Assembly: GCA_026026165.1 (NCBI GenBank)
Contig: JAPEUD010000033.1
Location: forward strand, 1 to 64,000
Length of the DNA: 64,000 nt
Source: Sarea resinae
Lineage: Eukaryota
Reading direction: 5' to 3'
Part shown: piece by piece, positions 40,830 to 64,000 of the stretch
How the letters are laid out: each line of letters begins with the position of its first letter
How positions within the stretch are numbered: position 1 is the stretch's first letter
Made by a program: the position numbers and the translations under genes
The notes under the pieces: model-generated
Told to the model about the DNA's origin: nothing
The model's input: the letters and a program-made list of their open reading frames with translations, nothing else
Databases searched by the model: none

Positions 40830-42216
40830 ATGGACGCATTCAATCCCCAGCAAACCACCGAGCTAGTCTCGAGAATCGGGGCGAGGAAATCGCACATGCG
40901 AATTGACAAGTTATGGTGGAACTCGTTCATGGCTGGACCGCTTTTGGGCTTTGGGTAATGTCGACCACCGTGCTACACTGCTCCGGAAACGCGCTGACAC
41001 GGTGCATCCAAGATGTGCCTCTTCATTGTGCACCACTGCATCTCCGTGGTATCAAGAAAATGCTCCTGGATTGATCCGCACAATTGGTGCTTTAGTATTT
41101 CCCATCGGCTTGGTCATGGTTGTTCTCAGCGGAGCAGATCTATTCACCGGTGACATCATGGTACGATATCAGATGCTCCCCAACAGAGAATTTCACTTCA
41201 AGCCTTGCTGACTTGACATACCCTAGTTTATGACTGTGGCGTTTCTTCATCGACGTGTAACAATATGGGATGTTCTCAAAATTTGGGTGGTATCCTTTTT
41301 CGGCAATCTCGCTGGTATATTGTTTTTCATGGCTATCATTATTGGCTGTGAGACTCCCCTCCCATAGTGATGTCTATGATCAGTGAAAACATTGACGCTG
41401 ATGATTTTGCAATTCCCAGACGGTGGGGTCTTCGATGAGGCCGTTTACAAGAACGAGAGCATCACTGGTGCTATCTCGAGAGCTCAAGTTCCCCAGTGGC
41501 ATCAAATATTTTTAAAGGCAATTGGAGGTACTTCGCACGCTCTGTTGCAGACTAAGCCTTTGAATAACTTTGCTGATGCAATTCAATTTTATAGCGAATT
41601 GGCTTGTTTGTTTCGCTGTGTACGGTTCTATCTCAGCGCGGGACATCACCGGGAAAATTCTAGCGTGCTGGTGGCCCCCGGCGACATTCGTGGCTCTCGC
41701 ACTTGATCATGTTATTGCGAACATGTTCTTCATACCTCTGTCGGTCAAGTTCCCGCTGAAGCACGTCAAGCTTGCTGACTGTTTCCCAGGGGCATCTGGA
41801 ACGGAGCACCCTTTGGTGTCGGATATTATATCTGGAAGTCAATGATACCCGCTGCGTTGGGAAACATACTCGGCGGCACCCTTTTCGTTGGTGTCATGTA
41901 TTGGTACCTCTATTTGGCCGGAGAGGGTACCATTAAGATCGATTCCAGCTTAGGGAACTTTTTGGACGCCGCGATGGAGGCCGGAGGCCCTATGCCCCCG
42001 AATGGTAGATCAGTCGGGGAGTCCAAGAACCATTCAGATGGCACGGCCGCTGAAACCACCGACGACAGCGGTCCAATTGACGGTCAGACAAACAGGCAGC
42101 TGAAAAGTTCAGGTCAGTATATGACCAGTGGGATTGGGCAAGAGCTGGGCCCCGAGACATATACCGAGAATAATGGCCTGGATAGAAAAGATCACAGTCC
42201 GGATGATTTAGTGTAG
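40830..42216 (+). CDS. Formate/nitrite transporter (FNT family), multi-exon
   Basis: ALVFPIGLVMVVLSGADLFTG, SFFGNLAG, KAIG|ANWLVC, ALDHVIANMFFIP, ALGNILGG. Confidence 0.92.
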
Positions 42217-42949
42217 ACCAAGCGGACAGGCCAAATAGATTTCTGTCCATCTAGATAATGCTTTGCAGTGCAGTCGGTAGAGTATCCTTGAATAGGCATT
42301 TTTGTACTTTGTTGCCATTTTTGATAATGTTCATAAATGGCTGGCAAGCTGATGTCGTTCTCTCGCGAGACGACTCTGATGATAATAGTGAGCATTTCCT
42401 ATGTGAATGTTGACCTTTTAGTATATTCGGAATTAGGCTCGCGCCTATCTCAGTGATCACGAAACAATCCAAGCATGGCTTTTCCTCTCATCAATGCTCA
42501 AAACAAACAATGCCCAAAGCAAATCAAGGGCTTTCAAAGTCGAAATGTCTTTCATCGCCACCCGCTTCAAAGAAATAACCTATATATCAACCTCTAGCAA
42601 GCATCATATTTTCCTCTAACATACTAGTAGCATGCAATCTTTCACCCCCTAAAAGAAGGGCGAGGCGAAGAGCATGTGGTCTAGACAACTAGACAATACT
42701 TGGTGGCTATAGAACTTGTTGCTTCAACTCTCTCCTTCCGCGTCAGCCGCATCACAGGCTAAGTTTGCGCAATGGATCCTAAACCCGAGTAAATTCCAGG
42801 TGCTAGCCTAACGTGTTGATAGTATTGCGATAGATGTCTTCTGCATGACTCAATTGATTAGAATCCTTTTAGCCTTAGCTCTTTGTCTCTAGAGTGGGAA
42901 GAAGCTTTAGGTATATCCTAGAGACAAGATATATTAATAACTAGAAGCC

Positions 42950-45556
42950 TGTAGAACTTCTATAAAATAAGGGTTATATAACTAGTATCCACTAACTTTC
43001 TTACAAAGTATATGTTATTATTAGTTTATTAATAACAAATTGCTTATATAATTAGTTATCACTAGAGGTTTCTAGTAAGTTAATTATATCTATATAATAA
43101 CTACCTTATACCTCTATAGCTAGATCTCTAAGTTTATTATACATAATTATTCTATACTATTACTTCTTTAGCACCTTTCTCTACTTATGTCTTTATGCAG
43201 GTACCTTCTAACAGGTTATAAGCCTTAATAGCCTGCTAAAGAAGCCTATCCTCCTATAATTTTGTGCTTTTTCCCTCTATAGCCACTGATATTCCTCTGA
43301 AAAAGAGTTGAACTTCCTCTTTTTTACCTAAAAAGACTAGGTCCTATAGTCTTTATAGTCCCTAGGCAGTTATATAGCCTCTTAGAGGTTATATGACTTA
43401 ACTTACAGATAAGAACTACTTAGGGTAGACTGCTTAAACTAAGCCTATACTAATAGATATTGTGTATACACACACTTAATAAGGATTTTCCTAATCCTTT
43501 GTGCTACCTTATAGGCATAATTCCCTTTAAAGGAAAACACCTATATAAGGGCAAGTTAAGTGCCTAATATATGCTGCCTTTACCTAAATCCTATAGTACC
43601 TATAGCTTGTGTCTATAGGACTATAGTATAGCAGCCTGTGTTCTGCAAAGCAGCCTTTGTGCCGCAATTTTACGCACCTATAGAACTGTAACAGTTTAGG
43701 AAAGTCACAAAACAGCCTTTGTGCTGACCTTTTATGCATCTATAGAACTTCTAACAGTGGTGCAAAAGCATAAGACACTCTTTGTGCAGCTATCTCACAC
43801 ATCTATAGAACTTATAAGTTCTATAGGTGTATAAAATTCATACTAGTGTGGTTCTACTACTTGCAGTAGAATACACTTAATAGCTAGTAGTCCTTTTCTC
43901 TGAAATTAAGTAGGAGATTAGTAACTACAGCTATATCTAATCCTGCATATTGAATCCCTAAGCTGTAAGGCAGCTCTAATTAGGATTTGTAGTCTATAAG
44001 GATAGAATCCCTACTTATAGAGAAGGGCTATTTTAAAGTCATGTCTAAAGACCCTAATAATAGTATAAATCTAGATTCAGACAGGTATTTTAGGGCAAAA
44101 TCTATAAAAGCTCTAGCCTATATTAGGCTTGTCCTAGCAGATAGCCTACTGTTACAGACTAGATATTACACTAATCTATAAAAATTGTAGGTTAGTCTGC
44201 AAAATCTCTATGAATCTAAGGGATTTAATTATTAATTCCTACCTATTTATAGAGAGTTATTTAATACAACTCTTTAAAAATGCAAGGATCTATAGGACTA
44301 CATTATAAAAATCAAGCAGCTAAATAATAAGCTAAGGGCTAGAGACCTAATTCTGCCTGATAAAATTTATAGCTGTAGAGACTCTAAACAACCTACCTAC
44401 CTAGTAACTATAACAATATTAGGTACTTACTATTATTACACAAACAATAAACAAAAGCAAAGACAAGGATATTAACCTAGAGAAGATTATTACACAGCTA
44501 CTAAGGTAATAGATAATTCTAAGAGGTTTAAAATCTCTAAGAGCACTTATAGTAGTGATAATAGTTATAGTACTAGCAAGGATACAAAGGTAGCCCTTAC
44601 TTCTAAGGGCAAAAAGCACTGTAACTATTGTAGGCTAAATAACTACAATAAGTCTACATGCTTTAAAAAGCACTCTAAGCTAAAGAAGAGTAAAAAGCCT
44701 AATGCTAAAAAGCATAGTGCTAACTCTTCTACAGCAGAGAAACTATAAGAGGAAAAGAGCTTTATAGCTACAAGCTCTAATTCCTATAGATGTCCTAAAT
44801 CAGTGTCAAAATGCACTGTTATAAGCACAGTCCTAGAAGGTACTGTTACAAAGCTATAAAAAGGCACTGTTACACCTAAAGCTTCTTATAGCTGTATAAA
44901 ATTTGAGCTAAAATGCACTGTTATAGAGTAGATTCTTAACTCAGGTGCAACAACATATATCTGCTATAGAAGGGAACTTTTCAACAATATTAGACCCTAT
45001 AGTACTACTATAAAGTAGAGTAACACTACTAGTTCTACTATAGCAACAAGTATAGAGGATATTAAGCTAATGTTTACCCTAACAAATCAGGTAGTAAATA
45101 TAAGAGATATTCTATACATCTCTAACTTTAGTGTAAACCTGCTACCCCTAGAGGCAATTATAAATAAGGGCTATAAAGTTAACTTTAGCCTTAGAAATGT
45201 CTTTATCCTAGATAATAAGAGTAGTATCACTGCTAAAGAGACCTATACTAATAAGCTTAGTGTCTTTTAGACTAAGGCTATACCTATAGTGCTATTTAGT
45301 ACTATAGAGGATAATAGCCTAGATATATAGCATAGAAGGCTAGGATATACAGAGGAAAGTGCTCTAAAAAGCTAATATAAAGCTTAGTATTAAGTCTAAG
45401 GACTTAGATATAGAAGACTACACTATCTGCTTAGAGGCTAAATTTACTAGAAATACTAGTAAAACCCTTGCAGAAAAGCCTAAGGAATACCTTGAAATTA
45501 TCTGTAATAATATAGAGTCTTATAAAACCTTTAACACTTAGTAGTAACAAATACTA
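42950..45556 (+). mobile_element. RIP-degenerate Ty1/Copia retrotransposon 5' part: partial LTR to 43213, PBS 43214-43224, gag-protease-start of integrase
   Basis: LTR ends ...TTCTAACA followed by GGTTATAAGCC (RIP form of the GGTTATGAGCC PBS); Zn knuckle remnant CNYC...C (~44620), *ILNSGATTYIC (WILDSGAT, ~44930), *HRRLG (~45330). Confidence 0.8.
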
Positions 45557-45988
45557 TGTTAGAAGGTAGTATAAAGATATAAGTAGAGGAAGGTGCTAAA
45601 GAAGTATAGTATAGAATGATTATGTATTATAACTTAGAGATTCTAGCTATAGAGGTGTAAGGCAGTTAATATATAGACTTAACTAACTTACTAGAAACTT
45701 CTAGTAATAACTAATTACATAAGTGATTTGCAAGCAATAAGCTAATAATAACATATGCTTTATAAGAAAGTCAAAGGATAGTTATATAACTCTTATGTTA
45801 TAGAAGTTCTATAGATATCTAAGAGATTCTATAGACTACTAGATAGTTCTACAACATTCTAGAGAGTTCTTAGAAGGTTCTATATGCTTAGTCAGCATAT
45901 AGAACCTTCTAGATCCTTCTAGAAGTGTCTAGAAGACTATAGAATCTCTTAGACACCTATAGAACTTCTATAATATAAGGGTTATATA
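45557..45988 (-). mobile_element. Copia LTR copy in opposite orientation with a folded-back end
   Basis: Begins TGTTAGAAGGTAG; reverse complement of 42950-43213; near-identical to 61340 onward. Confidence 0.8.
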
Positions 45989-46729
45989 CCTTATAGCCAA
46001 CTCTAGGATTTTTAACACAGTCTCACAACAGTATCACAACCTAGTAGAACTACATATAGTTTATAATTTATAAACAGTGTTAAAACTGTGTTGAGATTGT
46101 TACAATACCTACTATAAGTCGCACAATTAGCTAATACTAAAGGTCGCAGAATTACCCTTAGTTGCGACTGACTTTTGCGCACCTATAGAAGTTGCAGGGA
46201 AAAAATTAGGGAAAATTAGAACATTTCATGAAAAAGTAAATTGACTATAGTAGGAAGCGATCCTAAGAGCATTACATAATCATTCATATGTTGCACTACA
46301 TCAGCAAAAAGGGAAGAGGTCTATGTAGATATAGTGTAGATACATAGTATGTAGTACTAGTTCTATGTAGATAGTAGTGCTACAGTATATCTACAGCGTT
46401 GCATAGCGATATTGTAGTACATATACTTGTCTACTAGTAGATATAAAGGTAAATACATCTCTATATAGATATACATTGTCTTCTACATACTTGTTATTAG
46501 GTTACATGTAGTAGATACTTGTTATAATATCTCTGTAGAACTTATACATACTATCTGTACTACACAGTGTCTACTAACAGCTATGTGATATTAGGCAGTT
46601 GATTTTGTACTACACAAGCTACATAAGCTACATAAGCTACACTAGAACTTCTGTTAACTTCTGAAATCTATTTAGTGAAGTATGTTTCCTAGTCAATATA
46701 TTTGTTTACTAGGAAACGTTCTTTACAAT

Positions 46730-49689
46730 CTAAGCTGTTAGAAGGTATCTTAATTATATGACTTAGCCCTATTATATCTTTAACGTGTATAATACACTCC
46801 TTATCAGTTATTAGACAGCCTTTACTATAAGCAGCTATGTTGTCTAACCTTTTAACAATAGGTAGACAATGTATTATATCTTAACTCTCTAGTTGTTTAG
46901 CTTATACCTAAGTGATTAAAGCTAGTAATATTAGAGCAAACCCTAGCATAGTAAGACTAAATAGAAATTGATATTAAGCTAACAAATAGGTGCTAACTAG
47001 CGCTTATCTATTAGCTGTGCTATGTCTCTCTAGATAGTATACATTATCTTTTATCTAAACCTAATTATTTCTTCTACCTACACCTTGCTACAATGTTATA
47101 CATTAGATAGTCAACTCTAATACATCCTTATAGTTGTTATTTGCCTCTTAGAAACACACTATAAAAGATGCTCTATCTATAAGCTAGCTACTTGCATGTA
47201 AGTTTAATATCTACTAGTTAATATTTAGCTGACTATATTTACTAAACAACGTTTTAACAAATGTTAGCAAGGCAATTATAAAGTCTAGTAGACCTAGTTT
47301 TATAATTTGTTCTAATAATTGCAATAGATATCTGTTAAAACCTTTAAGGATAGGCAATCTAGTATTTAATATCTGTACTATATTAGGAGATAACAGCCTC
47401 TCTATAGCTATCTTACACGCCTTAAAATAGAAACGTTAGTTATAGTATTTTAATATCTATAGAGTAATATGTTAATAATTTAATACTTACTAGCTTAACT
47501 TTACTGTTGTTTAGTAGAGAGCCTCTAAACAGTTAGTAGAGAAGCTATAAAGAGACCTAAATTGTCTGATTATAGATATATAGTGACTAATAATATGTAT
47601 CTTAAGGAAGTTAAAATATGCACCTGCTTTTAAGGCCTCTTCTCTTACATAATCCTTTGCCTACTATATACTGTCTTCTTTTCTCTAACCTCTATTAGAA
47701 TATGCACTGTGTTTCTACTTTTGCTTTCTATTAGCTGTTAGCTAAGAAGCTCTTTATAAAGCTCTTTATAACGCTACAGTATATACTGTTTAGGATGCTA
47801 AGCGCGCTATAGCTACTGTTCCTTTATTAGCATAAAATCTCTAGAAAATAGCTTTGTGTTTATAGAAGACACTTAGTAGAAAGTCTATACACTTAAGGGT
47901 TTTATTGTTATAAGTATATAGTTATACAAAGAAGATAAAGTTAATAAAGGACTGTATATATATTATTGCTTGCTTAAAATCCTAGTGCTATTATACAGAT
48001 AGATTTGCTAATAATATAGCTGTAATAAGGACTAGGAATTTCACTACATTCTGTATTTCCTTCTCTTACTACTACAATATCTAGAGATAGGTCTTAGTTA
48101 GCAGACTAAAAATTAGATACACTAGCATTACAGTCTATAGAGAGTTAAAAGTGTCTAGTTGTTTGTATAGAAGTAGGAATACTGCTAGCTAGTTTAGAAA
48201 GTGCTGTAGTATACCTATATAAACTTAATGTAGTAGATCTAGTTTTAGCAGATTGTAGACGTTAACACCTAGCAGAAACTAAAGGCTATTAAGTGTCTTT
48301 CTAACACCTTTCTACTCTAGCGTTTGTATATTACTCTCTCTTAGAAGTCGCTAGTAGTTTGCTAAGTCTCTTACTATCTAGTTGTTATCTTCTAGACAAT
48401 AACTAAGGTTAGCCTATAGACATTTATATACTAGACAGTGGCCTTATATAATACTGTATATTGTAACAACCTCTTTATAGTTAGCTACCTACCTAGCAAG
48501 CTATAGAAAACAATTCTAGGTATAACTATCTATGTATAGTATCTATATACTATCCTCTCCTAGCTTTCTAAGTGTCTAAAGAGCCTAATCTAGTCTATTA
48601 TAGTATAGTTAATAATAATAATTCTGCTCTTAAACGTTATTTGCTTTAATTTGCTTTAGATAAACTAGTAAGAGACCTAAGAGAATAGTCGCTTGCAATA
48701 AAGGTTTAGCTTAAAGCGTGCTTAGCAAGTTACTAATTATAAGATATATTAGCTACATATGCTTGTCGCCTAAGAAATTAGTCAGATAAGTTTTGTTAGA
48801 CATATAGATTACTAAGACTAGTGTTGAGTTTTCAGGCAGTGTATCTTAGTAGACAGTTAGCACTATATCTAATACTAGATAAGTGTGATTTATATACCTA
48901 AGTCTGCTACTACTAATTCCTAGTATGTATATCTAAGTATAGTTAAGTATTCTGTTCTCTATACAATTTTATAGGCAAATATACAAGCGCCTCTTTAAAC
49001 TGTAAGTGTCTAAGTAGAAACAAAATACATCTTAAGAGATCTTTAAGATATATCTATATCTTCTTATTATAATACCCTAAGAAAGATATTTCTTCCTATT
49101 CTCTACCTAGCGTTCTAGGCATAGTTAACATCCTATCTAATTTTTAACGCAGAGTATATGCAGATTAGAAACTAGAGCAGTCCTATCCTATAATATTGTT
49201 ATTAAAGAACTTATTAATTGCAGTTAAGGTAATGTTGTTCTATAGAAACCACTGCGCTAGTCTGTAGTCTTTAGCAGTATTAAACAGCGCTTAAGATTGA
49301 CTAAGGTATATGTTGTGTCTTTTATTTAATTAATTAGGCAATTTATATAGTTTGCCTGCTAATAGATAAGCTATTAACTAGATAGCTATAAGCTTTGCTA
49401 GCGATTGTATATATAGTGTAGTCTTACAAGCTACTCTATCTAACAACTAACTACTATTATAATCTAGTTAATCTTTAGTGTAGTTAATATCTGTCCTGCT
49501 ATAGATATCTGCTAGAATGTCGCAGTTAGTGTAGCTGTTAGTGTCGTTGTTAATTGTAGAGCTAATATCTGCTGTTTTGCCTTAGTGTCTATTGTGTTTC
49601 TTAAACAACAGTAGATTGCAGTGTCTTATATATAAAGTCAACTGTAGAGAGTGCGTTGTATTATAACTATATATATAGCATTTTAACAT
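46730..49689 (-). pseudogene. Plavaka-type transposase, RIP-inactivated (3' end approximate)
   Basis: Minus-strand translation near 48850-48650 gives IYMSNKTYLTNFLGDKHM*LIYLIISNL...ATILLGLL (de-RIP SDETHLTNFSGDKHMWPIYLTIGNL); also VANYKEV..HCLVYKC and DLLH*VYIG; zinc-finger-like N-terminus. Confidence 0.75.
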
Positions 49690-52600
49690 TGCAATATCCT
49701 CTAGTAGTTGTTGCTATACATGTAATAGTGTAGGTGATTGCTTTGCATGTTATATTTATAGAGGTGAGTTTAAAAGTCTAAAGAGTGACTAAGTTATTAG
49801 TTAGGTGACATTAGTGTTAGTATACAGGCAACCTATATGTTTATACTAATGTAGGTAGATAAGGTAGTGATTTCTGTTTCTACACACACATTAATTAATA
49901 TATACCTTTGTGTTAAGCTTATATTAGGATAGGACTTCCTAAGCACAATTATTATGTTGCTCTTACTTAGAAAAAGCACAAACTCTAGCAGACCTATATA
50001 GTACACCTGATTCTATAAGATTAGCACCTTACTAACTAGAGAGACTTAGTAGAGAAAAGCACCTTGTTAGCTAACTGCTAGTAGCCTTTATTATCTACTC
50101 TCTAGTCTCTTAAACTAACTGTCTAGGCGATCTAAACAATTGTCTTATTATTAGCTGTCAGACGCATATTATACTCTTAATCTAACAAATAAAAGCAAGG
50201 CGGCATTGTAACGTTGTATAAAACGCATTGCAAGTTAGTATAAGATATATAACACTGTCTAAGCAAGGGCTAAACAAGTTAATAATTTGATTAGAGATAT
50301 AATCTAGCAGGTAGACTTCCTTTTAGCCCTAGCAGATTACTTTAGACAACAACCTTAAGGATAGGCAGACTGTTAGGAATGCTTATACATTGTTATCTAA
50401 GATTGTTGTAAAAAGGAGTGAGATTAAGAGAAGAGAGAACATAGTCCTCTTATAACAGACAGTGACACAACTAATAATAATAATAGAGAAGGCAAAGATA
50501 ATAGTAGTACACTACTATCTACTAGCGCAGTAGAAATATCAACTTCTAGCATAAAGACTCTAACTAGTAAGTAATATCTAATACCTATTCAATGTCTATA
50601 TCCTTATATACTAGATAGTTAAACGTTATATTATCTAGGATATATACTATAAAGAGAACGCCTTTAAATCCTAGATACACTCTCTTCTATCCTCTTTAAT
50701 AGAATCTATCTAATAAGTCGTTAGACGCTATATACCTAGCTATAAGATAGTTTAGATAGACTTAGATATTAACTACTAGACGTTTTAGATTGAATATAAT
50801 AGTGAGCTAGAGTCTGCCTTTAAACTTTTTCTAGAAGAAACTATGCGTTTAAAAATTGTGAGTGTAGCCTATAACATAACACTATAACTATTTAATAATA
50901 TATGTCTAGATAACTAGACTATCTTTACCTAAGAGATAATTGTCTACTAATTGTTATTGTCTAGTATCTCTAAAGAGATATATGTCTGTATAAAACCTAA
51001 TAAACAAATAGATTGCAGAAATTTACGATTTAGAAGAAGAGCAAGCAGATAGTATATCACTTAATTGTAGGATTAGACCTAAACTAATAATGTAGGACTC
51101 TTATCCTACTAAGTACCTCTTATTACTAGCCCTAAATATGCAAGCAAAAGTAGTCTGCCTTAGAAGAGGCTATTATCTTGCTACCTAAGTAGTAGTAAGT
51201 AGATATACTATACATGTCTATTAGATGTTACTAAGAGATAACTGTTGTTATATATCAGACGAAATTCCTATCTGCCTTGCTAATAAGATTATATACACAG
51301 ATAAATACAGCATACTAGAAGGACTAAAGAGGCGCTCTTATTATCGCGTATTAGATAGTTCGATTAATTATAATAAGCGTGTCTAGCGTGATAATAAAAG
51401 CATCTCTATAACATATAACTATAGCAAGACAGTAGGCGTTTAGCAGAAGCTTTCTCTAGTCCTTAGCAAAGAAACCTAATTATCTACTACACCTTCTTTA
51501 GAGGTAGTTATATAATGTTCTATTGTGTAAACTATATATTAGTGTCTGTTTTAGGTCTATTATATTATCTATATAACAAAAGTCAACTAATAGATAACAC
51601 TATACACTAGTCTAAATATCTAATTAGCTCTGCATAGCAGGTTAGCTACTCTAATTAGCGTTTAAGTGATTTAAAGACCTGCCTTAGCTAAAGACACAGA
51701 TAAATTTAGTGATAAACTAGACTTAATTTGTATGCAAATAAGATAATCTACTAATTGTATTAGTTATTAATCTGCTCCTATATAGTACTACATACTCTAG
51801 TCTATTGTTAAGGACTACTATAGCACGATATTATAGTAAGGTACTCTTAAGTATATTTGTATATCTCTTAGTATACTATTATATAGTAGCTATACAAATC
51901 TAAGTAGACTGCAACTACCTACTACGTTATAGTCTAAGATATACCTAGGTAGGTACTGTATCTACTATAGTACCTTACCTACCTAACTACCTAGTACACT
52001 GCTTGTCTGTTGCATAACATAAGGTAGTGCCTCTAATGTGTGTTGCATGTATATAGCAGCTATTAGCTAAAATGCAGATTTTATATGCAGTGTTACTCTA
52101 CTATTCTTGCTCTACCTCTTTGTTTAATATTAAAATGCTAGATATACTACAGTTAATACTCTATTATAAGACTCTATCTTAATATTACATTAGCAGATAG
52201 TTCACTTAAGTAGTAGACTAACTATTAGACTTTTATCACTAAGTAGATACTATATAAGTAGTGCTGCTATTTATATTGCTTTAACCTTACTCCTACACTA
52301 ATAGCTGTCTAAAACACAAGCAAACTATTATCTATATAATATATTATATATTAGATATAATATTAGTTAGAGGTGCGATGTTACGCACTAGATATACTAA
52401 TAGCATTAAGTGCTAATAGCTAGAAACAGTCGATAATAGCAACGTTTCTTTATCTTCTTTCTCGCGTGTTACAATGTTATTATTCTTTGTTCTGTTTAAT
52501 TAGATCTCTATTTACCTTATATCTCTATTCACTTCTGCTACTCTTATTTGCTGCTGCTACTCTTATTCACCTTACGCTATGCTAACGCGTTATTTATCTA

Positions 52601-53444
52601 ATATCAAAGCTATAAAACCTCTACTACCTAGTCTAGCCTGATTAAGAATTCCTACTAGATATAACCTTACTTTATTACTAATTCAGATAATTGTTCTATT
52701 AAGATATTAACTTTATCTCTAGCCTTATTAGCTCTCTACTTGTGTTCTCTTATGTTATTATCTTTTAGCTTGTTATATCTCTCTTAGTCTAGCAGCCTAA
52801 TCATTCTTATTATACTAAACTTAAGTTTAGTGCTATACTCTTAGCCTTAATTACTTCCTACTTATTCTCTCTGCTAGTTATCTCTCTACCTCTTAACATA
52901 TTATAACAATCTAGCTAAGTAAGCTACTCTCTTATTATACAACAGACGTGACTAATAAGAGATATAATAGGATGCAGTTTGTCGACTAGAATAAGAGACA
53001 GTTATAAGACCTAATCCTTAAGTATAAGAACTTATAAAAGAGAGGCTATTAGAAGCGTACCTAAATCTAGGTGTTATGTTAAACAAAGCTAAGACTAGAT
53101 TACAAGGGGCTATCTAGCAAGTATTGTCTGACTACAACTGCACTAACCTTTAAGCAGCAGGAAATCATACAGTTAACACTATAATAGAGGACGTAATACA
53201 GTCTGCTAACTTTCTAATGCTATCTGCAGACTGAATTAGAAGATAAGCTGCTAGATAGAGCTATAATTAGGAACACCTATTTATTATTATGCAAGATGTT
53301 TGTAAGAAGCTACAAGATAATGTAAAGAAAGAACTACAATCTAAAAGTAGAACTCTGCTATTACCTCTATCTAATACCTCTAGTACTTTAGCTACCCCTT
53401 ACTAGCTAGCTCTCTCTTAGCAGAAAGCCACTAAACAGACATTG

Positions 53445-53915
53445 TAGCAGCTTATAAAGACATCTATAAGTAAGAGACATATAATTATATTGATTAAATA
53501 GCACTTGCTAACAGCTAACAGACATTTAATATAACTCTAATACCCTTCTACTTAGTAGTCCTCTAGCAGGTACTATCTGTACACTAGCTTCTTCTTAGTA
53601 TAAAGCTACTAACTAGACTGTTTAGCAGCTTGTAAAGACACTTACAAGTAGGAGACATCTAATTATATCGATTAAATAGCACTTGCTAACAGCTAATAGA
53701 CAATTAATCTGACTCTAATACCCTTCTACCTAGTAGTCCTCTAGCAAGTACTATCTGTACGCTAGCTTCTTCTTAGTATAAAGCTACTAACTAGACTGTT
53801 TAGCAGCTTATAAGGACACCTACAAGTAAGAGACATCTAATTATATCAATTAAATAGCACTTGCTAACAGCTAATAGACAATTAATCTAACTCTAATACC
53901 CTTCTACCTAGTAGC
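53445..53915 (+). repeat. 178-bp tandem repeat, about 2.7 copies, each with a 52-nt intron-like segment
   Basis: Units start at 53445, 53623 and 53801; each contains GTA(A/G)G...GCTAAC...YAG. Confidence 0.85.
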
Positions 53916-54670
53916 CTTACCACCTCTTATATACTAATACCTTCTTATCTACTAACTATCTACATAGCACCTCCTCCTATAGGACTACTAATAGGTAAGA
54001 GGCATATACATTTATCTATTGACTAATATTTGCTAATAGTTAATAGACAACTAACTAGCTAAATAGTACATAACAATAGACAATAAGACAAGCACCTAAC
54101 TTTTCCTACTGTTATCTCTAACTATAGATAGTATCTGTAATATTATTGCTAGGTTTATCCTATAAGCAGCGATTATTAATAAGATTAAGACAGATATAGA
54201 GAGAGAGAGGATTAGATTAGAATACAATAAAGAGGTTGTACTAGTACTTAAGTTAGGCCTACAACTAATTGTATTCTATATTATAAGTGTCTCCTTATAA
54301 AAGTACATTGATTTCTAGTTGTTAACCTTATATAGGATGTAAAACGCAGAAACCTTAAGCAGGCTAGTAACAACTTAGTTTCTATACAGATAAGACCTAG
54401 ACTAGGTATATGCACTGTCTGCTATAAGGTATTATGTCTAGTCCTAATACAGTTGTTAACTGTCTAGTGCAACAGACTGTTTAATTGTCTAACTAGAGAC
54501 ACATTATACAAACCTAAATGCAATAACACTAAATACTACCTTACTCTCTACTACTAAGACTAGCTAACGCCTACTAAAGAGTTAGTTGTTAGGCCTTGCA
54601 GTAAGTGTTAGCTAGTCTAGTAGCACACCTAAGTTGTTATTGCCTCTGCTACAGAAAACTTAACGACTAT

Positions 54671-54790
54671 CTAAGAGTTAGTTGCTAGGCTTGTCTAAGA
54701 GTTAGTTGCTAGGCTTATCTAATAGTTAGTTGCTAAGCTTATCTAATAGTTAGTTGCTAGGCTTGTCTAAGAGTTAGTTGCTAGGCTTAT
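54671..54790. repeat. 24-bp tandem repeat x5 (CTAAGAGTTAGTTGCTAGGCTTGT), flanked by a ~115-bp direct duplication (~54522-54638 and ~54838-54952)
   Basis: Read directly from the sequence. Confidence 0.85.
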
Positions 54791-55099
54791 CTATAAATAA
54801 ATTGCTAGTCATAGATCTAAGACAAGGCTATTTGCTAATAACACTAAATACAACCTTACTCTCTACTACTAAGACTAGCTAACACCTACTAAAGAGTTAG
54901 TTGCTAGGCCTTGCAGCAGGCGTTAGTTAGTCTAGTAGCACACCTAAGTTATCACTATATTAGCTAAAGGAAACGCAACGTCTGTCACTAGTTCCTAAGC
55001 TAGGTCGCTATAACGTTAAGCGTAAGCTGCTAGACTTAAACGCAGTACTATTCCTTGTTACTATAGAGCTAACTCCTTATAGACCTATCACTGCAAATT

Positions 55100-57830
55100 A
55101 AAGATAACATTTCTAATAAGCTTATATATAACCTAATAAGAGATAAGGCTAATAAAGAAGACGTTAATAGCAAGGATACTAATAAAGAGGATGTTAAGGA
55201 TAAAGATAACAACAAAGATAATGTTAATAACAATAATAGCAACAAAGATAACGTTAATAACAAGGATTATCTACCTGTTAAAAACAATAATCTACTGCCT
55301 AATAATCCTCTAAATAACAATCCGCTACCTAATAATCCTCTAAATAACAATCTGCTACCTAATAATACTCTATATAATAATCTACCACCTAATAATACTC
55401 TATATAATGATCTGCTACCTGATAATTATCTATATAGCACAGAACATTATCTGCCTAGTAAGTACTAGGATAATAGGTGACAACCTCTACTGACTTTTAT
55501 CCTTACTTTATAGGCCTCTAAGACCTTAGTGCTTTTGCTAGCAGATAGTATAACGAATTAGAGAGAGTAGATAACCTAATTAAGAGAATAAACCTAGTGA
55601 TAGCGAAACGCTAAACAGTTATTCAAAATAGTCTAGCAATTTAACACAATACACTCTAAATGTAGAAGGATATAGCAGCTATATTCCTTATTCCTAAACA
55701 CACTGCATTAACAACCTAAATACCTATAAAGCTACTGTTCTTTTAAGCACCTATTCAACTACTACTGCATTAAGCTACAGCTATTATGTTTATGTTACGC
55801 AACAAAAGCAACAGAATTAAGAGAGGGTTTTTAGCAGATAGGATAGGGTTTAGAAAGGTGTGTGTCTGCTATAGTGTCTCTTTAATATGTACTTAAATTA
55901 ATAGCTAACGCTTAATCTACTAGCAGACACTAATAACGTTAGCTCTTATTGCTACTTTATAGACCTTATACTATAATCACTTAGATATAATAAAGAGTTA
56001 GCAAATCTATAACAGAAGATATCTAAGGGCTAGTAGTAGGCATTATCTGTATAAGACTTTAAATATTATATAACATTTTACTTACACTTATGTTTGTTAG
56101 ACAATATAGATAACAATACTAAATGCAGCGTTAAGTGTCCTAGTGACAACCCTTACAAGATACAATGCCTATATTAACTAGAATCTATAACCTTCTAAAT
56201 CACTATAGATAGAGAAGCGAATATAGTTATATGCCTAGTATATCTTACCTGTATATAGGTGATAGAATACTGAAAGTCATTCATTATATAATAGATCGCT
56301 AAGAACCTAATAGTTCTTAAGCACAACTAATAGGAATATAAGTTTGCAGACTTAATAGAAACAGACTCTAGTAGCAAATACATAAGATCGAATATTATCC
56401 TAGTAACATTGTTTAAGTGTTTGCGACTTTGCTGCAATTTGTAGGTAGAAACTTAATTTCAGCAGATAGTAGTAGATAAGGCGCACATTATTAAATCAAA
56501 GAACACTAACCTAATCTAAGACCTAACTACCTTAAGACAAAGCTATAAGAAACACTAGCCTATAATGTAGTTCCTCTCTAGCACTCTGTTTGTTATGCCT
56601 AGAGACTTAAGAGAGAAGGTAAACATTCTTATATATACCTAATAGATAACTAATCTCTCTTATATTAGATAAAAATGCTTGCCTAAAAAGTTAGACTTTA
56701 TTAAAAGTCAGTACAAAAATCTATTTAATTGCATAGCAAAACCTAACAGACTGCGACTGCCTCCTACTAATAAAGACTTTAATTAATATGCCTAGAATTT
56801 TATTAGCTTCCTTAGCGTGCTAATAATCTAACAAGATAAAAATGCAGTCGACCTAGATAGCTACCTGCTAATTAACCTCTTGCTATTCTACAGATATAAA
56901 TTGTTAGTCTAGTTTAGCAATAACTGCTAGAAGACAGCATATAAATAACAGCAAGCTATTATAGTAGCAAGAACAAACTAAATTCTAGAGTTAAACAAAG
57001 GATAACGCATTACTTTAATAATATATTTCTAATATATATAGCGACTATAAATTATCTCTTTATTCCTAGGCCTTGCCTACTCTAATCTAGCTAGGTTAGA
57101 CTAGAGCTTATTAAGTGTTAGGTCTATAGCCACTAAGGATTAGGAATTATATCTGTTGTATAACAATCTAGAAATACTTAGCTAGTTATCCTCTAAATTA
57201 AAAGTACTAGATAATCTTATTAATAATATAGGAGTGAATTTAAGGATAGAGAGTGAAAAGATAGTTATCTTTACTATATTCCTAATCACAGCCTTTATTA
57301 TTGCAATAGTAAGTGGTATTTATCTACTAGATAACACACTTAGGCTAACAGCAGATATACAATAGATAAAATATGTTAGATACAAGCTAGTTGCTCTATT
57401 CTATAGCAGAATCTCTATAGCAAAGCGCTTAAGGTTAGTAGAACGATTCTAAGGCATTATAGATATGTTCTCTAGCTTAGAACCTTTTTACTTAGTTAGG
57501 ATAATAGGTATAATGTTACTAGGCTTAACCTTAATTCGCGCGAATCTAGCAGTTGTCTTTAAACCTAATTATATAGACACCTCTAAGTAATAAGCACTTA
57601 ATAGAGTTCACTGTATTAGCTAGCGCAGCAAGGTAAGTTTGTATCAATTTATTAACACTAAGTCTGCAATTAAGAATACACTTATAGCTACCTAGAGGTT
57701 AAGAGGTATCCTAAATAACGCAGCCCTAAAGAAGAACAATCTGCTAGTTCTACTATAAGTTAAAGTTAAGATTAGTAGTAAAGATAATATAGATACTAAA
57801 GATAACAACCCCTACTATTAACCCTATAAT
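55100..57830 (+). pseudogene. SNF2-family helicase/ATPase, RIP-inactivated transposon cargo (boundaries approximate)
   Basis: RGFLADRIGFRK (motif I, de-RIP GGFLADGMGFGK, ~55820), IVVDKAHIIK (DEAH, ~56465), SSKLKVL, KIVIF, GLTLIRAN..VFKP...ALNRVHCIS (de-RIP RVHRIGQ, ~57520-57620); acidic 30-bp repeats upstream. Confidence 0.75.
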
Positions 57831-60800
57831 ATACAAAGGAGATAAAGACAAATAGGACGTGTAACAAACACAGCTAATATAAGTTTTTATTCGATTATAG
57901 GCGACTTTATAATACTAAGAGCAGCAGATATATATGTCTGCTGCTCTTAGGACTATTATCGCCTACTCTTCTACTATACTCTGTTCTAGCAGCCTAGCAA
58001 GGATTGCAGCGATAGTTAGTTCTAAACTATAAGTGTCTTCTAAATAACTTTAACAAGGTATAGAAGCTAACATCTGCTAATCTACTTTAAGTTAGTCTCT
58101 TTCGTTCTGTTTAGTGTTGTTTTAATTAGTCTAAGTATATATAAATCTAAATTAATCACATAAGTTGTCCTAATAGTGACACAATTATCTGTTAATTTGC
58201 AAAGATATAATTTAAGTGATAATGCTTATCTCTACTTAGACTAACAATTCTCTCTCTCTTTAAATTCTTATTTAACGCTAATGTCTTCTACACACTAAAC
58301 TCCTAGCTATCTAAATCTACTCTATATAGAGAAGCTAGTAACTTTTACAATGCCTTCTAAACAACTCTAGACTTATTCCTAGCAAGATGTTTAGTCTGCT
58401 AAGGAATAAAAACTTAACTACTTTACTAATAGTAACGCTTGTTTCTATCTCTACTTATCTAATCTATACTAAACAAAGCAGTTGCCTTCTGCAATACTTG
58501 CACTTAATAAAAGACTACTACTAAAGGACTAAACATAGTTTAGATCTAGTGATTGCTACTACTACTCCTCTAGTCTAAGAGCAACTATAGCTAATGTTAT
58601 TAGACAGCGATAAAGAGAATTATAAGCGAGCTATAATATCTCTAATACAAAGCCTACCTAGTTAGTTATCTAACGTTAGCGCTGTATCTGCTGCTAAAAA
58701 CGCAGAAGATAGTGATAATTCACTTAATCTAATAATATAGAATACACCTACTTAGAGAAGAGGATATTAGTTAGATAGCACTAAGGGTCTAGAAAGTCAA
58801 CTTATACTAGCGACTCCTAATAGCTAGATAAGTACACTAATAGATAAAGAAGTATCTAGGTGCAATTATCTGCCTAGAAAGAATCTAAATAAATAAGAGT
58901 GTCTTTATACAATAAGAAGACAAATAATAAGCCTTAGGCTAAATCACATTAAAGTGAACTTAGTTAATTGCAGAGAGAGTATACTAACAGGCAGACAATA
59001 TATATCTAATAACACCTAGGCTACTTTATACTTAATAGAACAGCGATAAATAAGCAGTAAGGCAAATTAAACTGTAAGAGAATTACCTATAAGATTCTAA
59101 GATCTTCTAACAGATAGACGTCCTATATATAGGTCTACTACTAGTTAGAAGGCAGCAAAACAAACTAACTAAGGAGATATCCTTTAGAAGCCTAACCTTT
59201 TTAACAGACAACTACTAGGAGAGCTTTACATATAGAATCTATTAACAAACACCTTCTAGAACAAATTGTTAATACTACCTCTACTATTATTAGCAAGTCT
59301 TACCCTTAGAGTACTTGTTTTTGATTTTGCTTATAGATAATAGGTTCTAGGCAATAACAAAGGACTCTTATCCTCTAGTCCTTATTCTAGAGCAGTTAGT
59401 ATTAACTTAGACTCTACCTTTACACATGTTTTTAATAAGATAGACGCACTAAGAACGCTACACTAATTGTCTAGCACTCTATAGACATTTACAAATAATT
59501 AGAGTGCAGGTTTAAGTTAGCTTCCTACACTAGATATAAGAGCATATATAAAGGTTTAAGTGTATTTAAAAGAGTGCTATCTACACTATAGGTATTAGGA
59601 TATTTATCTAATAGCTAAGGCAATAATAAAAATATATGTTATCACTTAAGACTCTTTCTTAAAAAGCGATAGTATAGCTACTATCTATGCTAACATATAG
59701 GACTAGGCTTATATAAAGGCAAAGGCAATTAAGATAGAGCATTAATTTCCTTATCCTATTAAGGACTCTAGACAATATAAAATAAAGCTGCCTGCATATA
59801 TTAAACCTATAGTAAGTGAGACTATTAGGTAACATTTCTACTATCTACCTACTAACTCTAAATAATTAAATCTTATTAGCTATTAATTAGAATAAGCTAG
59901 TAATAAGGATATATTATATTACAGTGTTATTAACTAGTAGTAGACCTATATAATCTGCCTCTTACTAAACTAGAACGACTTAAGAGGAAAGTGAGTTAAC
60001 TACTAGATTAAGATAGTTTTAACTATTAGGACATATCTATTTATATATAAATCTCTCTACTTGTTTTAGTTATCTAATAGTTTTTAGAGAAAGAAAGAGA
60101 GATTATTCTACCTAGTAATTGCATATATTATACTTAAAGAGTTCTTTAACAAGGTCTAGAAACTAGCGAATGTTAGTTATATATTAGATGCTTTTAAACA
60201 GATCACCTATTAGCTAATATATATTGTGTCTACTACACTCTATTACACTCTCTCTAAATAGAAAGAAAAGAGCTTTACTTCTTAAGATTTTACTAGAGAC
60301 AGTGTAAGTAGTAAGTAACTAGCTAGATATAACAGCTAACAGATAATATAACAGCTAACAAACACCTAGAGGTCTACTAGCGCTAGGTAGCTACATAGAA
60401 TTTTCTAAGCAGTTAGTAGTAAGAGGCTATCCTTCTACTAATAAAGAAAGCTATTAATAATAGTAATACTTTAACTCTTAGAAAAGTCTACATTCTAACA
60501 AAAGAGTTCTATAATAATAGAGAAGAGGATCTAGAGGATCTAGGCCTATTACCTAAAGAACAAGTCAAATTATAAACCTAATTAGCTAGAGCAGATACTA
60601 GGTAGTATATTAATAGTTTACATTATTGTTAACTAACTAACCTATTCTCTTAGTTAGTAGATTCGCTGTATAATTAACACTATTTTTCGCACTATATAGA
60701 CTCTATATAATAAGTTATCTGTGCTATATAGTAGCTACTAAAATACACGTGTATTCTGTATTTATTAGTAATACAGTAGGTGTCTACATGTATTTTATCT

Positions 60801-61339
60801 AATCTCTAGAGATTAGTAAGTATAACTACTAGAATCTACTATAGTCTACTAGTAGGTAAAAGAATAGTTATATAGTTAACACTAATATATTATGTAGAAG
60901 ATATACAAAGTCAGTGTATTCTATGTAGTACTATAGTAGCTGCTACCTAAACTACTGTACATGTAGCGCTACAGCGTTAACTGTTTGTAACATAGGTAAT
61001 GTAGGTTACACAGCGCACCTGTAGTCACCTGTAGCACACCTCTCTTTTTGCTAATATAACTAGGCTATCTGACTTGTTAGAAATCTAGCCCTATAGTGCT
61101 ATATAGCCTACTAAAACCATAATATTATTTTGATATAGAGATTTTCAGATTTTAGATCACCTAAATTCACTGAGACATTCCTCTACTAGACTACCTACTA
61201 GCAATAGAATTATATTTATTTTCACTATATCAGAATTTTATAGCAAAATTTCTAGACTACAGACTGTTACAAACCTATAGGTGCAACTAATTAGGTTGCG
61301 ACACCTTCTATAGTCATAGGATATCTGAACTATATATAG

Positions 61340-61798
61340 TGTTAGAAGGTAGCAGAAAGATATAAGTAGAGGAAGGTGCTAAAGAAGTATAGTATAGAAT
61401 GATTGTGTATTTTAAACTTAGAGATTCTAGCTATAGAGGTGTAAGGCAGTCAATATATAGACTTAACTAACTTACTAGAAACTTCTAGTGATGACTGATT
61501 ACATGAGTGATTTGTAAGCAATAGGCTGACAATGACATAGGCTTTGTAAGAAAGTTAGGAGATAGTTGTGTAACCCTTATGTTATAGAGTTCTATAGATA
61601 TCTAAGAGATTCTATAGACTTCTAGATAGTTCTAGAACATTCTAGAGGGTTCTAGAAGGTTCTAGATGCTTAGTCAGCATATAGAACCTTCTAGATCCTT
61701 CTAGAATGTTCTATAAGGTTCTATAGAGTTCTATTAGCTTCTATAGGTCTGTAGAAGCTTCTAGATGTATCTATACTGTCATGTGACATTCTGTAACA
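61340..61798 (-). mobile_element. Full-length solo Copia LTR, 459 bp
   Basis: TGTTA...TAACA termini; same family as the copies at 42950-43213 and 45557; no clean TSD seen. Confidence 0.8.
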
Positions 61799-62132
61799 GT
61801 CTAGATACTTAAGAGTGACTAGAATTAAGGTTATAATTCTAACATATAGATGCATTATATATATAAACCTAAATAAAGCATAACACACTATCTAGTTGCA
61901 GAGTATCTGAATCACATACTGTTACATACCTATAGGTGTATAAAAGTAGGTTGCAACACCCTATATTGGTTCAGATTACTAGTAGGTTGCAAAAAATCAG
62001 CAGGTTTCAAAAATTAAAAAGGTTTAGTAGTATTAAGAGGTTTTAAACACCTATAGAAGGTTTTAAACACACTGTTACAGTGTTGAGACTGTCTTACAAC
62101 CGTGTTAGAAATATGCCTAGGGGCACTTAAGT

Positions 62133-62365
62133 AACTATCCCTTGACTTTCTTATAAAGCATATGTTATTGTTAGTTTATTGCTTACAGATCACTTATATA
62201 ATTACCTTAGTTATCACTAGAAGTTTCTAGTAAGTTAGTTAAGTCTATATATTAACTGCCTTACACCTCTATAGCTAGAATCTCTAAGTTTATAATATAT
62301 AGTCATTCTATACTATACTTTTTTAGCACCTTTCTCTACTTATATTTTTATACTACCTTCTAACA
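62133..62365 (+). mobile_element. Partial Copia LTR copy
   Basis: Colinear with ~42990-43213, ending TACCTTCTAACA. Confidence 0.75.
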
Positions 62366-64000
62366 GCTTCTATAGAAGTATCTCTAGAAACTGCTATTCT
62401 TTACACTAATAAGCGGATTAATAAAGAGGCTAGCAAGGTTCTCTACTAGAGGAATAGGTATAAAATATTAGTATATCTATAAAGGTAGAGTCACTTCTAA
62501 GCTACTTAGGTATATACCTTTATCTGCTATATAGGTTTGTTCTTTACTATTATATAATATCTATACACTTTAGCTAAACTTAAGACTAGGCTATAATTAT
62601 TAATACCTATAGCCTTACCTCTATCTTTAGTAAGCTAGATAAAGACCTATATAAATATTACTAAGATCTAAAAAAAGCAATTAAAAAAGCTGTACAAAGT
62701 CTAATAGTCTATAATAATCAATATAGCGTTGTAATCTAGCCTAATAAGAGACTCTTTTAAGAGAAGCTTAAAGACTATAACACTCTTATCTTATTAGAGC
62801 CTCTTATAATCCTTTATATTTAAAAGGTAATAATTAATAGATACTTAAGTGCCTTTAATAGAGTTTCTATAACTAGTTTAAGACTGTATTATAATAGTAT
62901 TAATAGTTCTAAGACTTTAAACCTTCTCTAAGTGTTAAGACTATATTAAACTTTTTTAGGTGTTAAACTTTTTCTAGGTTTTAAACCTCTACTACTATAA
63001 GTAGGTTTAACACCTATACTATTACAATATAGTCCTAACACTTAGAGAAGGTATTACACACCTATACAATGTCTTAACACCTATAGAAAGTCTTACTACC
63101 TATAGAAAGTGTTAGAACCTTTAATAATTAGTAAGGTTCTGCAACTACTAGTAGACTAGTAGGTAAAAGTCAAAAGAAATATAAGACATTCAAAGATTTT
63201 TGCAAATATTAAAATTGTTAAATGTCTCACTAAAAATAGGTGTAGCTATTTTTTTTATAAATTTGAAAATCTCTATATTAAAAAAATATTATAGTTTCTA
63301 TAGGCTATATAGCACTGTAGGGCTATATTTTCTAACAAGTCACATAGCCTAGTTAGTGTAACATTAATAAGTTGATTATATAATGCTCCTAGGATCAATT
63401 CTTACTGTACTTAATTTACTTTTTTTTCGCCTAAATTTTCTATAGGTGTTAAAAAGTCAAGCGGTTTTAAGCAGTGTCAACACCTAGGAGGTGTTAGTAA
63501 CTGTGTTAAAGATCAACACTATTGTAGTACTGTACCACAATTTGTATAGGTGTCAACACCTATAGTAGTAATAACATAGTTTTAACACTGTTTAAACACA
63601 GTTTTAAAATTACCTGATATAGTACTAAGGTAATAAGAAATTCTTTAATTAATTCTAGTAAGATATAAGGTGTACTTTTAAGTACTATAAGAGAGTAAGA
63701 GACTATAAGTAATAAAGTTATAAGTAATAAAGTTAGTTTATATACTTTCTAGATTCTAGGTAGGTACCTAGGTATATAGAGAATGACTTATTAAGATAAT
63801 AGGACTATATAATATATAATTTAATAAAAGATTGCAAATATTTTTATAGAAGTTAAAAGAAGAGAGAGAGAGAGTATATAATTCTAATAGTACTTTCTCT
63901 AGCCTATATTAAGCTAGAGAACCTCTTGCTATATACCTATATAAGAAACTTAATACCTTATTATAAGGGCTACTATTAATAGAGGTGCTATATATAGCTT

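Follow-up and report, generated by a model that had tools for sequence, protein, structure and literature searches.

Plavaka transposases lie within the CMCT clade, which includes CACTA/EnSpm and Transib/RAG1, and are said to have been first described by Iyer et al. in PNAS in 2014. For families of the PlavakaB lineage, termini of the form 5'-CATCA..TGATG-3' and 2- or 3-bp target-site duplications (TSDs) have been reported, along with fungal Plavaka elements that carry a TET/JBP gene (Kojima, PMC12730594). Plavaka elements of the red alga Bostrychia are reported to span 17.4–19.1 kb, with three accessory genes (PAG1–3) and adjacent tandem arrays; these genes include a DNA methylase with a SET domain and a putative ParB-like/2-oxoglutarate (2OG) oxygenase, predicted to act on DNA or chromatin (bioRxiv 10.1101/2025.02.11.637652). 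Here we analyse a stretch of 64,000 nucleotides of the fungus Sarea resinae (assembly GCA_026026165.1, contig JAPEUD010000033.1, positions 1 to 64,000), which we call the window and whose coordinates are used throughout. Its segment 46299–61056 is most probably one copy of a PlavakaB-lineage transposon that was inactivated by repeat-induced point mutation (RIP) and carries the relic of an SNF2-family ATPase.

The insertion at 46299–61056 measures 14,758 bp, has 13-bp inverted ends and is bordered by a duplicated TA at either side. On the left, ...GTTGCAC and the first TSD copy, TA (46297–46298), are followed by CATCAGCAAAAAGGG; the left terminal inverted repeat (TIR), CATCAGCAAAAAG, occupies 46299–46311 on the plus strand. 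On the right, ...CTCTTTTTGCTAATA is followed by the second TSD copy, TA (61057–61058), and then by ACTAGGCTATCTGAC. The right TIR at 61044–61056 appears on the forward strand as ...CTTTTTGCTAATA and reads TATTAGCAAAAAG on the minus strand. The two TIRs are complementary at 11 of 13 positions, and both differences are G>A changes in a TpG context, the dinucleotide that RIP prefers. When the window was searched with a RIP-degenerate 13-mer, YATYARYAAAAAR, the only two zero-mismatch matches were the two element ends, in inverted orientation; at one mismatch there were six further matches, while 3.5 are expected by chance at up to one mismatch.

Beyond the TIRs, both ends are rich in a short subterminal motif. 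The left subterminal region (46299–46800) holds 15 copies of TGTAG or CTACA in the first 500 nt, and the TGTAG-rich right region (60800–61056) holds seven in the last 250 nt. Between the ends there are 46 in 14,000 nt, or 0.8 per 250 nt, and the clusters are confined to the two ends. An earlier note on this DNA, made from the letters alone, had proposed 13-bp TIRs differing by two G>A changes, a flanking TA on both sides and ends rich in CTACA/TGTAG; our reading of the two ends and the motif counts bear out all three. Some subterminal motifs, for example TATGTAGTACTA and CTACAGCGTT, are shared by 46299–46410 and 60915–60990 in direct, not inverted, orientation. Subterminal repeats of En/Spm likewise occur in both orientations.

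The boundaries can also be read from an uninterrupted copy of the target site. When the insert and one TA are removed, the flanks join into a sequence that aligns without a break, junction included, with the reverse complement of 63100–63631, an inverted (minus-strand) paralogue in which the TA is single (63354–63355). Of the 588 alignment columns, 363 match, 96 differ and 129 contain gaps, and about 170 bp around the junction are conserved far better than the rest. A repeat finder independently recovered the arms of the junction as inverted repeats I8 (72 nt at 88%) and I13 (52 nt at 85%). Because the paralogue aligns across the junction, the ends and the 2-bp TA duplication are fixed independently of the TIRs. 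The whole 14,758 bp was thus inserted as a single unit at a TA within a pre-existing repeat of ~1 kb. The empty site claimed in the earlier note therefore stands as regards the alignment of the flanks across the TA at 63354–63355, but it is a paralogous copy of this RIP-mutated ~1-kb repeat, not an allele.

Direct copies of the ~1-kb repeat flank the element at 45557–45990 and 61340–61780, and other copies, which are inverted, lie at 43000–43200, 62130–62375 and 63100–63631. The flanking direct copies are 15,783 bp apart, or ~1,023 bp without the insert, and the locus therefore resembles a tandem or dispersed array of a ~1-kb unit.

The transposase relic lies in the left part of the element. 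Pfam was searched with translated frames in which stop codons were read as X, covering all three minus frames of 46299–61056 and all three plus frames of 49600–61056 (the plus frames of 46299–49599 lie outside the scans). The Plavaka profile PF18759 matched 48195–48839 on the minus strand over profile positions 105–322 of 325, with an E-value of 1.3e-21 and 77.6 bits against a curated cut-off of 26.3, in a stretch that contains 17 stops in 215 codons. A further match upstream in the gene, at 48898–49095 on the same strand, covers profile positions 24–99 (E = 0.0044; 16.7 bits, below the cut-off). As these two colinear parts fall in different frames, the domain is almost whole but interrupted, either by an indel or by a short intron. 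With 96 stops among the 1,200 codons of the main frame, the copy is dead.

The full transposase gene relic probably extends over about 46700–49900 on the minus strand. These limits are estimates drawn from a purine/pyrimidine codon model, blind to transitions and trained on the window's own genes, whose periodicity favours minus frames here; the model recovers the transposase frames only as the best of six, with scores of about 0, and also recovers the SNF2 frame described below. The transposase read contains GHCLVYKC, picked out by eye without alignment to intact Plavaka proteins, in which Y can be derived from C by G>A. A word-indexed protein search with residues 60–760 of the X-containing read returned no relatives, and of the 275 patterns matched when metagenome loci were searched with the Plavaka core, none was confirmed.

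The ends point to the PlavakaB lineage. The left terminus reads CATCA; the right one, TAATA, becomes TGATG once two G>A changes, each in a TpG, are undone. The TSD measures 2 bp, with TA on both sides of the element and once in the paralogous empty site. In the supplement of PMC12730594, Plavaka-11_AB of Agaricus bisporus begins CATCAGCAAAACGG, compared with CATCAGCAAAAAGG in the Sarea element; the first 12 nt of the latter match this published terminus at 11 positions. By its transposase and termini, the element is classed as a Plavaka-type, PlavakaB-lineage DDE/TIR transposon. A minus-strand Plavaka transposase at the left end, with PF18759 as the profile by which to check it, had been put forward in the earlier note. 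The X-read frame scored well above the curated cut-off, and the PlavakaB-like termini and 2-bp TSD agree with the family name. Canonical CACTA/En-Spm elements have a transposase of a related clade, short TIRs, subterminal repeats and more than one gene, together with CACTA termini and a 3-bp TSD. The Sarea element has CATCA termini and a 2-bp TSD instead, and on this basis canonical CACTA/EnSpm was rejected as its class.

To the right, on the plus strand at about 56–57.8 kb, the element contains what, judged by its motifs and profile matches, is very likely the relic of an SNF2-family ATPase. With helicase motif definitions that we take to be those of the family, motifs II (DKAH, from DEAH, at 56475), III (SSTL, from SGTP, at 56577), IV-like (KIVIF, at 57264) and VI (at 57591) fall in one frame (+0), in the right order and with family-typical spacing. 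The first two belong to an N-lobe relic at 56376–56588; the C-lobe relic, at 57264–57653, begins with the IV-like motif and continues as a block through motif VI. Motif VI itself (57591–57623) reads XA.NRVHCISX against QA.DRAHRIGQ, and every difference is of the RIP type, fully recoverable by C>T or G>A. Motif I is uncertain, with a candidate at 55994 in another frame, and support for the N-lobe is much weaker than for the C-lobe.

A phmmer search of the PDB with the 600-codon read of this frame gave nine matches, and all nine are SNF2 proteins (Chd1 forms, Rad54 and Rad26; E = 0.12–0.56). Five other PDB searches with reads of the same element produced three matches, none of them SNF2. With reads of 3.8 thousand amino acids nothing meaningful was found in the PDB, and at that length the SNF2-holding frame lost its matches. 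Aligned to zebrafish Rad54, the relic is identical at 33 of 108 residues, and 14 of the 75 mismatches can be reached by undoing C>T or G>A; against Chd1, 14 of 61 residues are identical and 13 of 47 mismatches reachable. The reachable mismatches were counted by hand on the PDB alignments, and the chance expectation is 0.11.

A RIP-aware profile gave a further line of evidence. The profile was built from 69 distinct open reading frame (ORF) cores, taken from 120 viral contig stretches encoding DRAHRIGQ. Read literally, it placed pieces of the relic at ranks 1, 2 and 5 among 642 six-frame pieces of the window. Naive scoring by the best ancestral residue, without background correction, was uninformative (every piece reached ~370), and a log-odds emission model was used instead, which gives C>T and G>A a probability r of 0.3–0.6 each. 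Under this model the piece 57003–58202 scored 88.7–92.3 half-bits (z = 14.5–15), compared with means of 29.9–31.5, standard deviations of 3.9–4.2 and maxima of 43.0–45.4 for 201 control pieces from the RIP-mutated 43–64 kb. The alignment places 57369–57653 on profile columns 356–444. When the motif VI columns were masked, the relic still had the top score (48.6, z = 4.3), now through 57369–57452 on columns 356–382; this match is colinear with motif VI and lies ~50–75 codons upstream of it. RIP-aware profile scoring recovered a domain that standard searches had missed, and it may help to annotate other RIP-mutated regions. The SNF2 helicase that the earlier note had placed inside the element is thus backed by the PDB matches, the order of the motifs and the profile.

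Several observations weigh against an SNF2 relic, or against a transposon family built around one. PF00176 scores 12.3 bits (E = 0.087), below its cut-off of 24.9, and Helicase_C (PF00271) had no match in the Pfam scan of the relic. With 39 stops in 600 codons, such scores below the Pfam cut-offs are to be expected. Searches of the two lobes against PHROGs gave no match and against NCBIfam only a maltoporin match taken as noise, and none of 1.84 billion representatives matched the read at E ≤ 0.001 in a full HMMER search. In word-indexed protein searches, neither longer proteins nor, at E ≤ 10, those of similar length were matched by the X-containing read. When the N-lobe was searched against the PDB, the only match was a spurious one to mouse Kit ligand, at 55878–56165 (read of 55800–57089); because this meaningless match reached E = 0.005, E-values near 0.01 on AT-rich RIP-mutated reads are untrustworthy. 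The RIP-aware motif patterns are permissive: 210 of 300 shuffles contain motif II, and 16 contain motif VI with its 11 residues. Motif V is poorly kept, as its region (MLLGLTL) is not derivable from AGGxGxNL by RIP alone, and the unmasked z-score is partly circular because the viral profile was selected through motif VI. Moreover, the evidence comes from one dead copy, and an SNF2-carrying family is a candidate reading; the function suggested below for the SNF2 protein is conjecture throughout; and a sequence resembling the right end at 12 of 13 positions, at 54828–54840, would set the transposase portion apart from the portion with SNF2.

The sub-threshold scores, the Kit-ligand match and the permissive motif patterns would all suit a right half that is non-coding or encodes something else, with the SNF2 likeness a chance product of AT-rich, RIP-mutated translation. 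Chance alone would hardly be expected to yield nine SNF2 proteins out of nine PDB matches beside none in the other searches, top ranks against an SNF2 profile, a masked top match colinear with motif VI, and four motifs ordered and correctly spaced in a single frame, and we hold this explanation to be very improbable.

The right-end-like 13-mer at 54828–54840 (minus strand) was found with the RIP-degenerate TIR pattern. It lies in right-end orientation and has a TAGTCA hexamer at the same offset as the true end, which would fit a composite structure: an 8.5-kb Plavaka element (46299–54840) and a 6.2-kb piece with a second right end, the two having moved jointly through use of the distal end by the transposase. 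The chance expectation of about 3.5 one-mismatch matches in the window speaks against such a structure, as does the lack of a TGTAG/CTACA cluster preceding 54828–54840; the 13-mer also sits within an internal direct repeat of 315-bp period whose sister copy reads differently. Its likeness to the right end is probably due to chance, and a composite of this kind is improbable.

A single transposon that includes the SNF2 segment is favoured by the layout and base composition of the insertion. The SNF2 relic lies physically between the element ends, the 14.76 kb having been inserted as one unit; the subterminal motif clusters occur only at the outer ends; a transition-blind search of the element found no internal TIR or long terminal repeat (LTR) pair of at least 24 nt; and the RIP load is even. 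TpA/ApT is 1.72 in the element and 0.69 in the genic part of the window, and (CpA+TpG)/(ApC+GpT) is 0.63 and 1.23, respectively; the element flanks show the same dinucleotide behaviour as the element. All of its 1-kb bins have a GC content of 0.285–0.343 and a composite RIP index of 0.76–1.72. C>T and G>A changes run throughout every part of the element, leaving no part of it functional. Duplicated DNA is what RIP acts on. Together with the even RIP load along 14.8 kb, this suggests that the whole unit, including the SNF2 part, was once present in at least two copies.

A different history would make only the ends and the transposase Plavaka, and the SNF2 segment either the nested insert of a different repeated element or a piece of a host gene captured once. 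The composite RIP index is slightly lower over 55.3–57.3 kb (0.76–0.82) than over the transposase (0.99–1.17), only one copy of the element provides evidence, and we found no paper that links Plavaka with SNF2, the published fungal accessory gene being of the TET/JBP type in the source available to us (PMC12730594); each of these would fit such a history. The earlier note had named ends of the SNF2 segment's own as the finding that would speak against a single element, and the transition-blind search found no TIR or LTR pair of at least 24 nt bracketing it. The otherwise uniform GC content and RIP load fit a segment that was repeated with the rest, and the 14.76 kb entered the target as a whole. 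We regard a nested or captured SNF2 segment as rather unlikely and retain the reading of a single SNF2-carrying transposon.

The ends of the element are 13-bp inverted repeats starting CATCAGCAAAA, with TGTAG/CTACA clusters behind them. The left 3.5 kb holds the relic of the DDE transposase gene, read leftwards, and the right part that of the SNF2 ATPase gene, read rightwards. When active, the element would have moved by DDE cut-and-paste, with the CATCA ends, and perhaps the subterminal motifs as well, recognised by its transposase. As an accessory protein, the ATPase might have opened or countered silent chromatin at the element, or taken part in Rad54-like repair after excision, much as published Plavaka elements carry accessory genes of the TET/JBP or methylase/SET type.

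Further coding-like sequence lies to the right of the SNF2 relic, up to ~60.4 kb. By purine/pyrimidine codon log-odds, a coding-like relic occupies 58350–59400 on the plus strand (frame +1), with 5.6–9.2 bits per 450 nt in five of seven windows starting at 58350–59250 and 2.4 and 2.9 bits in the other two; this stretch had no Pfam match, and a PDB search of 58300–59499 found none. At 60115–60312, also on the plus strand, there is a weak DUF6532-like stretch (PF20149, E = 0.0064, 16.8 bits against a cut-off of 24), which is a hint only, as a spurious match of similar E-value was seen elsewhere in the element. A list of domains that two Ganoderma species possess beyond those of the other Ganoderma species includes DUF6532 next to KDZ, Plavaka and CxC2 (as reported in PMC8955403).

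A block of tandem repeats at 53.4–55.0 kb sits between the divergently oriented transposase and SNF2 relics. It comprises a 178-bp tandem repeat at 53406–53914 (2.9 copies, with a more diverged further copy reaching ~54054) and, at 54522–54986, a pair of 150-bp direct repeats that enclose a 24-bp tandem array (54668–54793, 5.2 copies). The 24-bp array scores highly in the purine/pyrimidine model, probably as an artefact, because its period is a multiple of three. The sole long open frame in the element follows at 55073–55468 on the plus strand: 131 codons of 30-bp and 15-bp repeats, of low complexity and rich in Asn, Asp, Lys, Pro and Leu, found in the ORF list and by the purine/pyrimidine model. 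It is in a different frame from the SNF2 relic downstream and possibly represents a low-complexity N-terminal part of the SNF2 gene, a link suggested by its position. Between 49900 and 53400 there is no clear coding periodicity and, apart from a TPR_8 match taken as noise, no Pfam family in any scanned frame at E ≤ 10. Stop-codon density alone did not delimit genes in the element. The ~11 kb of plus-strand coding relics described in the earlier note thus shrink to an SNF2 core of ~1.4–1.8 kb, the stretch at 58.35–59.25 kb, the repeat ORF at 55073–55468 and the sub-threshold DUF6532 match.

Starships are tyrosine-recombinase giant cargo elements of Pezizomycotina, and the size of the insertion (14.8 kb) and its cargo, but nothing else, would suit a Starship-like element. 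The scanned frames yielded only Plavaka, weak SNF2, weak DUF6532 and the TPR_8 noise match, with no tyrosine recombinase, reverse transcriptase or TET/JBP, and the short TIRs with a 2-bp TSD likewise argue for a DDE element; movement by a tyrosine recombinase is so improbable as to be negligible. A Starship was rejected as a candidate on the lack of any match to the tyrosine recombinase 'captain' (DUF3435) in these frames.

The rest of the window up to ~42 kb is ordinary gene-dense DNA with a GC content of ~0.51; from ~43 kb to the window end GC falls to ~0.30. Long ORFs of the genic part match Cdt1_C, gamma-tubulin complex components, the Aft1 HRA, HRR and OSA domains, ArsA/GET3 and transthyretin, a set that would suit a filamentous ascomycete. 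Among sequencing runs, one contains the stretch (share 0.61) and is probably its source, and two runs of other organisms from the same study have almost no words in common with it. The border at 42000–43000 is sharp, with gene-dense DNA free of a RIP signature on one side and an AT-rich, RIP-mutated block, continuing to the end of the window, on the other.

Taken together, the insertion is real and its boundaries are precise; it belongs to a known kind, being a PlavakaB transposon killed by RIP, and has an unusual passenger, the relic of an SNF2-family ATPase. A single dead copy is not enough to establish a new class. A tentative wider view is that there is an ascomycete branch of PlavakaB whose regular accessory genes include one for an SNF2-family chromatin-remodelling ATPase and perhaps one for a DUF6532-type protein. 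If this were true, the self-encoded toolkit of Plavaka elements (TET/JBP, methylase–SET, 2OG oxygenase) would extend to nucleosome remodelling or Rad54-like repair, and the near-identical terminus in Agaricus would mean either that end recognition is conserved across Ascomycota and Basidiomycota or that an element crossed between them. Transposons with anti-silencing tools of their own show how mobile DNA escapes chromatin control, and a remodeller driven by ATP would be a tool of another kind. The Sarea copy is useful mainly as a lead and for correct repeat annotation, because such elements are easily mislabelled: Plavaka consensus sequences labelled as LTR/Pao have been reported (PMC12581995).

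The earlier note knew of no description of this architecture. In part this does not hold, as giant Plavaka elements with accessory genes that modify chromatin or DNA are already published; in part it does, as SNF2 as the accessory gene was not found in the literature searched. None of the papers found connects Plavaka or EnSpm elements to an SNF2 gene, a provisional result, since the founding description of Plavaka lies outside the literature covered.

Among known systems, Starships and the Sarea element have in common that they carry cargo in a filamentous ascomycete, but the latter is far smaller and combines a DDE transposase with short TIRs and a 2-bp TSD. The 'gigantic' KDZ1-type transposons of Cryptococcus (~11 kb) are likewise large fungal DDE/TIR elements with extra genes of unknown role; unlike the Sarea element, they are described as active, with a KDZ transposase, an 8-bp TSD and 236-bp TIRs (PMC11343200). 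The Plavaka elements of the Chinese white truffle also reside in an ascomycete and have a 2-bp TSD, but their terminal motif is given as 5'-CATAC-3', and the portion of the report available to us mentions no cargo (PMC12581995).

The giant elements of Bostrychia come closer in build, sharing with the Sarea element a Plavaka transposase, large size, accessory coding sequence and internal tandem arrays (10.1101/2025.02.11.637652). Their tandem arrays are reported to adjoin an accessory gene, and may be compared with the Sarea arrays at 53406–55000 (10.1101/2025.02.11.637652). They differ in that PAG1–3, as described, are not SNF2 genes, in belonging to another kingdom and in forming families known from many copies, whereas the Sarea element is represented by one (10.1101/2025.02.11.637652).

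Closest of all are the PlavakaB elements of Agaricomycotina, such as Plavaka-11_AB, which are reported to have the same type of transposase, CATCA..TGATG termini and a 2-bp TSD (PMC12730594). The terminus of Plavaka-11_AB, CATCAGCAAAAC, is near-identical to CATCAGCAAAAA in the Sarea element (PMC12730594). The Sarea element differs from these relatives in its host, a RIP-active filamentous ascomycete, and in being a dead copy. Both have, beside the transposase, an extra gene for chromatin or DNA marks, which in the published elements is a TET/JBP dioxygenase (PMC12730594) and in the Sarea element would be an SNF2-type ATPase.

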